Below, piece by piece: positions 55,385 to 55,645 of a stretch of 64,000 nucleotides of DNA. The position numbers and the translations under genes are program-made. The stretch's first letter is position 1, and the number at the start of each line of letters is the position of its first letter. A model generated the notes under the pieces. The model ran no database searches. It was given only the letters and a program-made list of their open reading frames with translations, and was not told the origin of the DNA. This stretch comes from Escherichia coli O127:H6 str. E2348/69. Its GTDB lineage: Bacteria; Pseudomonadota; Gammaproteobacteria; Enterobacterales; Enterobacteriaceae. The stretch lies in NCBI RefSeq assembly GCF_000026545.1, contig NC_011601.1. One strand, 5' to 3'.

Positions 55385-55645
55385 AAATTCTCCATCGGTG
55401 ATTACCAGAGTCATCCGATGAAGTCCTAAGAGCCCGCACGGCGCAAGCCCTGCGGGCTTTTTTGTGCCTTGAATTTGTCCCGCGAAGTCTGATGCCAACT
55501 AATTAAATCCGAACCTTTTAGGCACCTTGTTAGGCACCTCATAAAGCTTTATTGTTTTTGAGGTGCCTAAAACTATGGAAACCCGGCAATGGCAAGACAA
55601 ACCAAACCTCTATCCGTTAAAGAAATCGAATCTGCTAAACCCAAG

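Follow-up and report, generated by a model that had tools for sequence, protein, structure and literature searches.

Integration by phage lambda depends on a heterobivalent integrase and five accessory sites (P1, P2, and P'1 to P'3), which are distributed 2+3 across the two arms and are distinct from the core (PMC2951348). In KplE1, the integrase gene lies beside attL with its promoter inside the recombination region, and the arm-type sites of IntS overlap PintS, which is negatively autoregulated (PMC2951348; Panis et al. 2010). For phage P4, the GenBank record NC_001609 annotates a set of 12-mers as 'attP arm sequence repeat'. Read toward int, these comprise two tandem direct copies (cagtgggggcac and aaaagggggcat), followed by the 20-bp core, about 110 bp of intervening DNA, two more tandem direct copies (cattgggggcat and aattgggggcat), 15 bp, and an inverted copy (atgtgcccccaa) that abuts the int ATG. 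According to PMC7286903, the P4 Int represses its own promoter and so does Vis (citing Pierson & Kahn 1987 and Piazzolla 2006), repression of the int promoter by Int is known for P4 and PAI I536, and the P4 int regulatory region has been reported to include an IHF site (citing Cali et al. 2004).

A literature search found no paper describing the arm sites of CP4-57-type elements, the family to which the locus considered here is related. In Escherichia coli O127:H6 strain E2348/69, the 15-kb espC pathogenicity island sits at ssrA (PMC7545054). The stretch that was analyzed, referred to below as the window, comprises 64,000 bases of this genome and contains three copies of a short repeat in the roughly 200 bp that separate ssrA from the remains of an integrase gene. 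Positions 55385-55660 (276 bp) match NZ_CP059840.2 with 100% identity. These copies are interpreted here as arm-type sites in the attL P' arm of a tyrosine integrase of the P4/CP4-57 family that targets the 3' end of ssrA, a reading that, judged from sequence comparisons, has a probability of about 0.85.

Repeat cluster and decayed integrase gene of strain E2348/69

The relevant features of the window are as follows.

55022..55384, + strand: ssrA (tmRNA gene), the integration target (ARAGORN tmRNA call with the tag peptide ANDENYALAA; RefSeq annotation)
55362..55384, + strand: putative attL core, the 3' end of ssrA, TTCAACTCCCGCCAGCTCCACCA (degenerate copies at attR of relatives)
55385..55515, + strand: core-proximal P' arm of the island (hairpin and T-run; alignment of the arms from P4 to E. 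coli)
55516..55527, + strand: putative arm-type site 1, direct, TTTTAGGCACCT (8-mer at 55519-26; aligns with the P4 repeat at 3965-3954)
55528..55539, + strand: putative arm-type site 2, direct, TGTTAGGCACCT (8-mer at 55531-38; aligns with the P4 repeat at 3953-3942)
55527..55555, + strand: candidate int promoter, with the -35 hexamer TTGTTA (55527-32), a 17-bp spacer, and the -10 hexamer TATTGT (55550-55)
55561..55572, - strand: putative arm-type site 3, inverted, reading AGGTGCCTAAAA on the + strand (8-mer at 55562-69; aligns with the P4 inverted repeat at 3926-3915)
55589..55645, + strand: first 19 codons of the integrase gene (5' stub), MARQTKPLSVKEIESAKPK (ORF list; alignment to intact relatives; blastn breakpoints)
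55646..57597, - strand: decayed IS21-family element that splits int (RefSeq, which flags a frameshift in istA and an internal stop in istB; Walker A motif of IstB in the ORFs)
57598..58782, + strand: remainder of the integrase pseudogene, in three reading frames (Pfam; RefSeq 'frameshifted; internal stop')

An exact search of the window found the 8-mer TAGGCACC three times, at 55519-55526 (+), 55531-55538 (+), and 55562-55569 (-), all within a span of 51 bp. This number of copies is by itself unexceptional (1.3 +/- 1.0 in shuffled sequences, with three or more in 13 of 100 shuffles). The cluster, however, is unique in the window: nowhere else does a non-trivial 8-mer have at least three non-overlapping copies, on either strand, in 60 bp. 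When the window was simulated 60 times with a first-order Markov model, a cluster of this kind, formed by any 8-mer, appeared in only 5 simulations. Because the cluster was reported by three overlapping 8-mers, the repeated unit has to be at least the 10-mer TTAGGCACCT, and each copy of TAGGCACC belongs to such a unit of 10 to 12 nt. The sites are located 131 to 188 bp past the end of ssrA (55384) and the attL core; the motif sits outside the core and is unlike it in sequence. Site 3 ends 16 bp ahead of the int ATG.

These results bear on several claims of the original prediction, which had been made from the letters of the window. The two direct and one inverted 8-bp copies that it placed between ssrA and the integrase gene are exactly those recovered by the search. 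They do lie upstream of int, but the ATG that had been taken for the start of the gene, at 55576, is out of frame; the actual start is the ATG at 55589 (MARQTKPL...), the position at which, in an alignment, the annotated genes of intact relatives begin as well. The gene had been called dead, and so it is, being cut after codon 19 by the IS21-family element and frameshifted downstream. The parts of int on the two sides of this element overlap by 5 bp, fitting a target-site duplication. In the remainder of the gene, Pfam recognizes positions 15-83 of Arm-DNA-bind_3 in the ORF at 57564-57887 and a Phage_integrase domain split between 58171-58512 and 58537-58782. The pseudogene is 91.6 to 95.3% identical, with gaps, to intact genes, and the P' arm is 96 to 99% identical to the arms that lie beside intact genes. 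The sites described as retained are indeed perfect; given this identity of the arms, however, their preservation needs no selective explanation and fits simple inheritance.

No core-like copy or distal-arm pair was found in the 42 kb downstream. As the integrase gene is split and frameshifted and there is no attR, the E2348/69 sites are relics that cannot support recombination by their own integrase and that most likely do nothing now. The absence of an integrase, an attR, and a distal arm also makes the espC island immobile and its left end a frozen attL, so for E2348/69 itself the sites are of little consequence. Two other features of the window can be mentioned here. In the IS21-family element, the ORF at 56120-57511 is IstA-like and continues into sequence with the Walker A motif of IstB. 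On the - strand, 61494-63908 is an ORF of 804 aa that represents the C-terminal portion of EspC, a serine-protease autotransporter and the cargo of the island; RefSeq annotates the espC gene in full.

Arm layout and motif classes in related loci

Regions upstream of int were collected from E. coli genomes, 80 IMG/VR contigs, and 80 genomes of other Enterobacterales. Layout and spacing proved to be fixed in about 140 loci from many genera of this order. The direct copies follow each other at 12 bp, and a distance of 23 bp between site 2 and the inverted copy recurs in 79 of 82 distinct arms. The motif itself varies, and the change is concerted: within a locus, every copy bears one and the same variant. 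The following variants were seen.

Class A: TAGGCACC; E2348/69 and many genera
Class B: TAGGCCCA; CP4-57 of E. coli K-12 and others
Class C: TAGGTACC; Pectobacterium, Lonsdalea, Brenneria, and Serratia; two direct and three inverted copies
Phage phi467: TGGGACCC

Site 1 is kept in 41 distinct class-A arms. In Providencia and Morganella, the flanks and spacers have strongly diverged while the sites are still intact. The P' arms of E2348/69, K-12, Providencia, Morganella, Pectobacterium, Lonsdalea, and phi467 were aligned with that of P4, whose entire int-proximal arm proved alignable with all of them, and the columns occupied by the TAGGCACC sites are those of the int-proximal repeats annotated in P4. 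The comparisons with P4 and CP4-57 that had been proposed as a check therefore come out in favor of the original suggestion of arm-type integrase sites or operators: the annotated attP arm 12-mers of P4 align with the sites in the same layout of two direct and one inverted copy, and K-12 has the three positions, reading TAGGCCCA. Such positional homology argues for the arm-type reading, and the positions are conserved in homologous att regions across the Enterobacterales, so that the lack of conservation named beforehand as a refutation is not seen.

This conservation also bears on whether the repeats could be a functionless local 12-bp duplication, helped by chance and lacking a dedicated binding protein. 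Sites 1 and 2 do form an exact tandem with a 12-bp period, some relatives lack one such unit, and the 8-mer is not significantly enriched in the window when only its copies are counted. Yet the layout is shared by P4, Providencia, Pectobacterium, and E. coli despite diverged flanks and spacers, a tandem duplication cannot yield inverted or distal-arm copies, and all 8 additional pairs found outside the P' arms (see below) adjoin attR cores, which together leave this explanation with hardly any probability.

Several loci depart from the common layout. Exactly one 12-bp direct unit is missing from L007 (1440-1490), L089, L110, and L171, leaving one direct and one inverted site, and these variants show that a site can be gained or lost by slippage. 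In L135 (about 9960-10000), sites 2 and 3 are deleted upstream of int. In L167 and L164 (about 9900-10330), degenerate or deleted arm sites are found beside integrase genes with stop codons; as degenerate sites here accompany int pseudogenes, the decay of the two appears to be joint. Pectobacterium betavasculorum (L151, 15997-16330) carries a tandem array at ssrA, in which a short class-C island directly precedes another island, whose integrase is of the phi467 type and whose sites are of the TGGGACCC type; the two neighbors therefore belong to different arm classes. In CP4-57 of K-12 (L006, 16212-16267), the 8-mer GTGCCATA is repeated five to six times in tandem in the yfjM-abpA interval; these repeats are unrelated to the arm sites. 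The sequence TAGGCCCC, found at about 57724 within the int pseudogene of E2348/69, was considered as an analog of the intragenic P4 repeat and rejected: it merely represents IGPYP codons and is absent from class B.

For the distal (P) arm, a degenerate pattern of two sites 12 bp apart was scanned over 1.96 Mb of loci. Outside the P' arms it had 8 matches, every one of them at attR, where a degenerate ssrA-type core follows 54 to 62 bp downstream. Class-A pairs, with TAGGCACC twice, were found in Rahnella (L098), Citrobacter freundii (L102/L105), and Mangrovibacter (L163). The class-B pairs are TAGGACCA/TGGGACCA in K-12 and TAGGCCCA twice in Cedecea (the K-12 and L135 pairs both lie 54 to 62 bp before the core). 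The P arms of class-C islands carry GCCCA, GTCCC, or GCACC variants rather than GTACC, which may mean that recognition tolerates changes at positions 5-8 or that these islands are mosaics. Judged by sequence, the two distal and three proximal copies reproduce the 2+3 arrangement of P4.

Core-like copies are present at the attR ends of L098, L105, L135, L151, L154, L157, and L163. Next to the K-12 attR copy, TTCAGACTCCGCCAGCCCACCAA, on its downstream side, comes the sequence located immediately after ssrA in island-free strains. Owing to its 5 mismatches, this core was missed by an exact-seed repeat search; it was located by eye and confirmed via the island-free flank. A search of E. coli genomes with the K-12 distal arm returned only K-12-type arms, and no distal arm was found in E2348/69, WAT, or BEC1, whose islands are cut by IS elements and have no attR. 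Klebsiella phage Kp4865-2 was considered as a source of a true attP and rejected, as its upstream TGGCGACA pairs belong to another prophage in tandem at ssrA. The same holds for most IMG/VR loci: about 100 to 130 bp upstream of the shared ssrA core, most of L011-L090 carry the distal arm of a different tandem prophage (in L011, at about 1140-1165), which makes the upstream arms in these loci uninformative with respect to the CP4-57-family integrase. Those tandem prophages have direct-repeat pairs of their own, 11 to 12 bp apart (TGGCGGCA twice, GGAGCCG twice, ATGCAC twice, and GATCCAC/GTCCAC). With several prophage types each having its own pair, a paired-repeat distal arm seems to be general among unrelated elements that target ssrA.

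Candidate int promoter and arm-binding domain of the integrase

The candidate int promoter matches 8 of the 12 consensus positions and falls below the 9/12 cut-off of the promoter scan, hence it was not called by it. Its -35 hexamer reads TTGATA or TTGTTA in 80 of 82 distinct arms. The -10 hexamer varies (TATTGT, TAACAT, TATGGT, TATAGT, and others), with T1 and A2 present in all 82 arms and T6 in 81. The candidate -35 hexamer overlaps site 2, the candidate -10 hexamer ends 6 bp before site 3, and the predicted transcription start falls within site 3, a position resembling that in the autorepressed Pint of P4. A scan of the E2348/69 P' arm for the IHF consensus with at most one mismatch had no match, although P4 is reported to have such a site.

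The core-proximal part of the P' arm contains other conserved elements. A rho-independent terminator of ssrA, a hairpin followed by a T-run, occupies about 55432-55464 (55445-55459 in the scan call); it is conserved in all relatives examined and has a weaker counterpart in P4. As it lies downstream of the att core, this terminator is supplied by the island and not by the chromosome. Three boxes, CATCCGAnnAAGTCC (55412-26), TGTCC (55476-80), and AAATCCG (55505-11), are conserved from P4 to CP4-57-type islands despite the differing arm motifs. Situated between the core and the arm sites, they could be binding sites for the excisionase (Vis/AlpA) or for host factors.

The arrangement of the promoter also weighs on the possibility that sites 2 and 3 form a regulatory hairpin for int, in a 5' leader or a read-through RNA, with the concerted motif changes being compensatory. 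The two sites are complementary in every class, and the predicted stem has about 17 pairs, of which 12 join site 2 to site 3, and an energy of -26 kcal/mol (z = -3.05 compared to shuffled sequences). However, given the conserved promoter, site 2 would lie upstream of the transcript; the direct site 1, which is not needed for the stem, changes in concert as well; class C has three inverted copies; and the direct pairs of the distal arm cannot form a hairpin at all. Nor is the stem an intrinsic terminator, as it is followed by AAAACTATGG without a T-run and the only terminator-like call of the scan is the ssrA terminator. A hairpin function is accordingly considered very improbable, and the sites are discussed below as binding sites of the integrase.

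Integrases of intact relatives contain the Pfam domains PF13356 Arm-DNA-bind_3 (residues 8-95), Phage_int_M, and Phage_integrase. Their N-terminal domain matches the PDB entries 3JU0 and 3JTZ by sequence (E = 6e-15 and 2e-10), and its predicted model (pLDDT 88) matches the fold of the arm-binding domains in 3JU0, 3JTZ, and 3RMP with an rmsd of 0.9-1.3 A. The class A and class B consensus sequences of the integrase are about 413 positions long and disagree at 51 of them. All 12 near-fixed amino acid differences that separate 45 distinct class-A from 46 distinct class-B integrases are confined to residues 4-100, with none in residues 101-413. Three of the discriminating residues, 24, 32, and 48, map to three strands of a beta-sheet in the predicted model. 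The beta-sheet of the arm-binding domain is the element that contacts arm DNA in the lambda and Tn916 integrases. Residue 4 (Q/K/L) was considered as a specificity determinant and rejected because L139 combines Q4 with class-B sites.

The sequence of the sites thus varies together with the arm-binding domain, and no such coupling is seen for the remainder of the protein; L051 (1391-1830) is the single exception. This locus has class-A TAGGCACC sites and an N-terminal domain that is identical, except for residue 4, to that of the class-B integrase of L116; by its sequence, it is a natural recombinant. The codons of the N-terminal domain are only about 20 to 320 bp from the sites, so part of the joint inheritance of domain and sites could be due to linkage and not to co-adaptation.

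The same comparison is informative with regard to a recombination directionality factor (RDF) or regulator, namely, a winged-helix protein of the AlpA/Vis type, for which the repeats could serve as operators at the int promoter or as excisionase boxes. The Vis protein of P4 reportedly has two binding boxes, located in the interval from int to the attP core. Vis is listed as a repressor of P4 Pint in PMC7286903, the TorI sites of KplE1 overlap the -35 region of PintS (PMC2951348), and AlpA homologs are encoded in many of these islands. The AlpA type, however, does not track the motif: nearly identical AlpA proteins are found with TAGGCACC and with TAGGCCCA, as in L108 (class A) and L116 (class B) or in L143 (class A) and L156 (class B), and L111 and L136-L138 provide further near-identical AlpA sequences across the motif classes. 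It is the N-terminal domain of the integrase that the motif class follows. In addition, the homologous 12-mers appear as arm repeats in the P4 annotation, the recurrence in the distal arm follows the 2+3 pattern typical of integrase arm sites, and the conserved boxes nearer the core are better candidates for RDF binding. Recognition of the repeats by such a factor is therefore regarded as improbable.

If the repeats are arm-type sites, the active element can be pictured on the model of lambda and P4. The integrase would grip the P' sites and the two P-arm copies with its N-terminal Arm-DNA-bind_3 domain and the core, at the end of ssrA, with its C-terminal domains, and the resulting bridges between arms and core would fold the DNA into a complex that integrates or excises the island. 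The int promoter would be embedded among the sites, with site 2 over the -35 hexamer and site 3 over the expected start. Since the sites overlap the promoter, the same binding would be expected to repress int, as has been reported for P4 Pint and KplE1 intS.

The feature is, on the whole, ordinary and of a known kind. Its one mildly novel aspect is that arm specificity appears to have diversified in a modular way among integrases with a common ssrA core. A tentative and rather doubtful extension is that these integrases fall into at least four arm-site/arm-domain specificities (TAGGCACC, TAGGCCCA, TAGGTACC, and TGGGACCC), that the unit being swapped extends from the first arm site to about int codon 100, and that the swaps could insulate tandem islands. 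If true, modular re-coding of the arms would shield tandem ssrA islands from one another's integrases. The comparison also provides a definition of the arm sites of the widespread CP4-57/ssrA family that is drawn from sequence only and comprises the 2+3 layout, the 12-bp and 23-bp spacings, the embedded candidate promoter, and those residues in the arm-binding domain whose identity goes with the motif class. It could aid the annotation of att sites and island boundaries at ssrA and could guide specificity-swap experiments.

Comparison with known systems

CP4-57 of K-12, with the gene order ssrA-intA-alpA, shares the integration site with the E2348/69 island and has a homologous integrase. Outside the sites, its P' arm is nearly identical to that of E2348/69, and the three-site layout and the candidate promoter hexamers are equal. 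The differences are that all three sites read TAGGCCCA in CP4-57 versus TAGGCACC in E2348/69, that the N-terminal domains of the integrases differ at the 12 near-fixed positions, and that CP4-57, unlike E2348/69, keeps intact intA and alpA as well as attR with the P arm TAGGACCA/TGGGACCA.

P4 resembles E2348/69 in its integrase family, with Arm-DNA-bind_3, Phage_int_M, and Phage_integrase domains, and in the gene order of tRNA-like core, P' arm, and int. It also shares with the ssrA family the two tandem direct copies and one inverted copy in the int-proximal arm and the two tandem direct copies in the distal arm. The motif is TTGGGGGCAT in P4 compared to TTAGGCACCT in E2348/69, and the target is a leucine tRNA gene rather than ssrA. 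The inverted copy, which abuts the int ATG in P4, is 16 bp ahead of it in E2348/69, where, unlike in P4, the integrase, the distal arm, and attR are all gone.

In KplE1, as in E2348/69, int adjoins attL. The KplE1 promoter lies inside the att region and the arm sites act as operators, binding and repression being experimental findings; E2348/69 has a candidate promoter inside the att region, for which its sites would be the operators. The KplE1 integrase comes from another lineage, and its target is argW. Among P4-like integrases, those of HPI (Yersinia) and HAI7 (Pectobacterium) have solved arm-binding domains that match the N-terminal domain found in the intact relatives of the E2348/69 integrase; these elements target asn or other tRNA genes.

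Lambda has the 2+3 accessory arm sites, apart from the core, in common with the ssrA family. Its arm sites are bound by the N-terminal domain of Int, which belongs to another Pfam family and recognizes another motif. All three P' sites of lambda are direct, whereas one is inverted in E2348/69, and int promoters are not embedded in the arm in lambda, in contrast to the candidate int promoter of E2348/69. Lambda and HK022 share their arm specificity and differ in core specificity; re-coding of the arms at a common ssrA core, if it does occur, would be the mirror image of that relationship.
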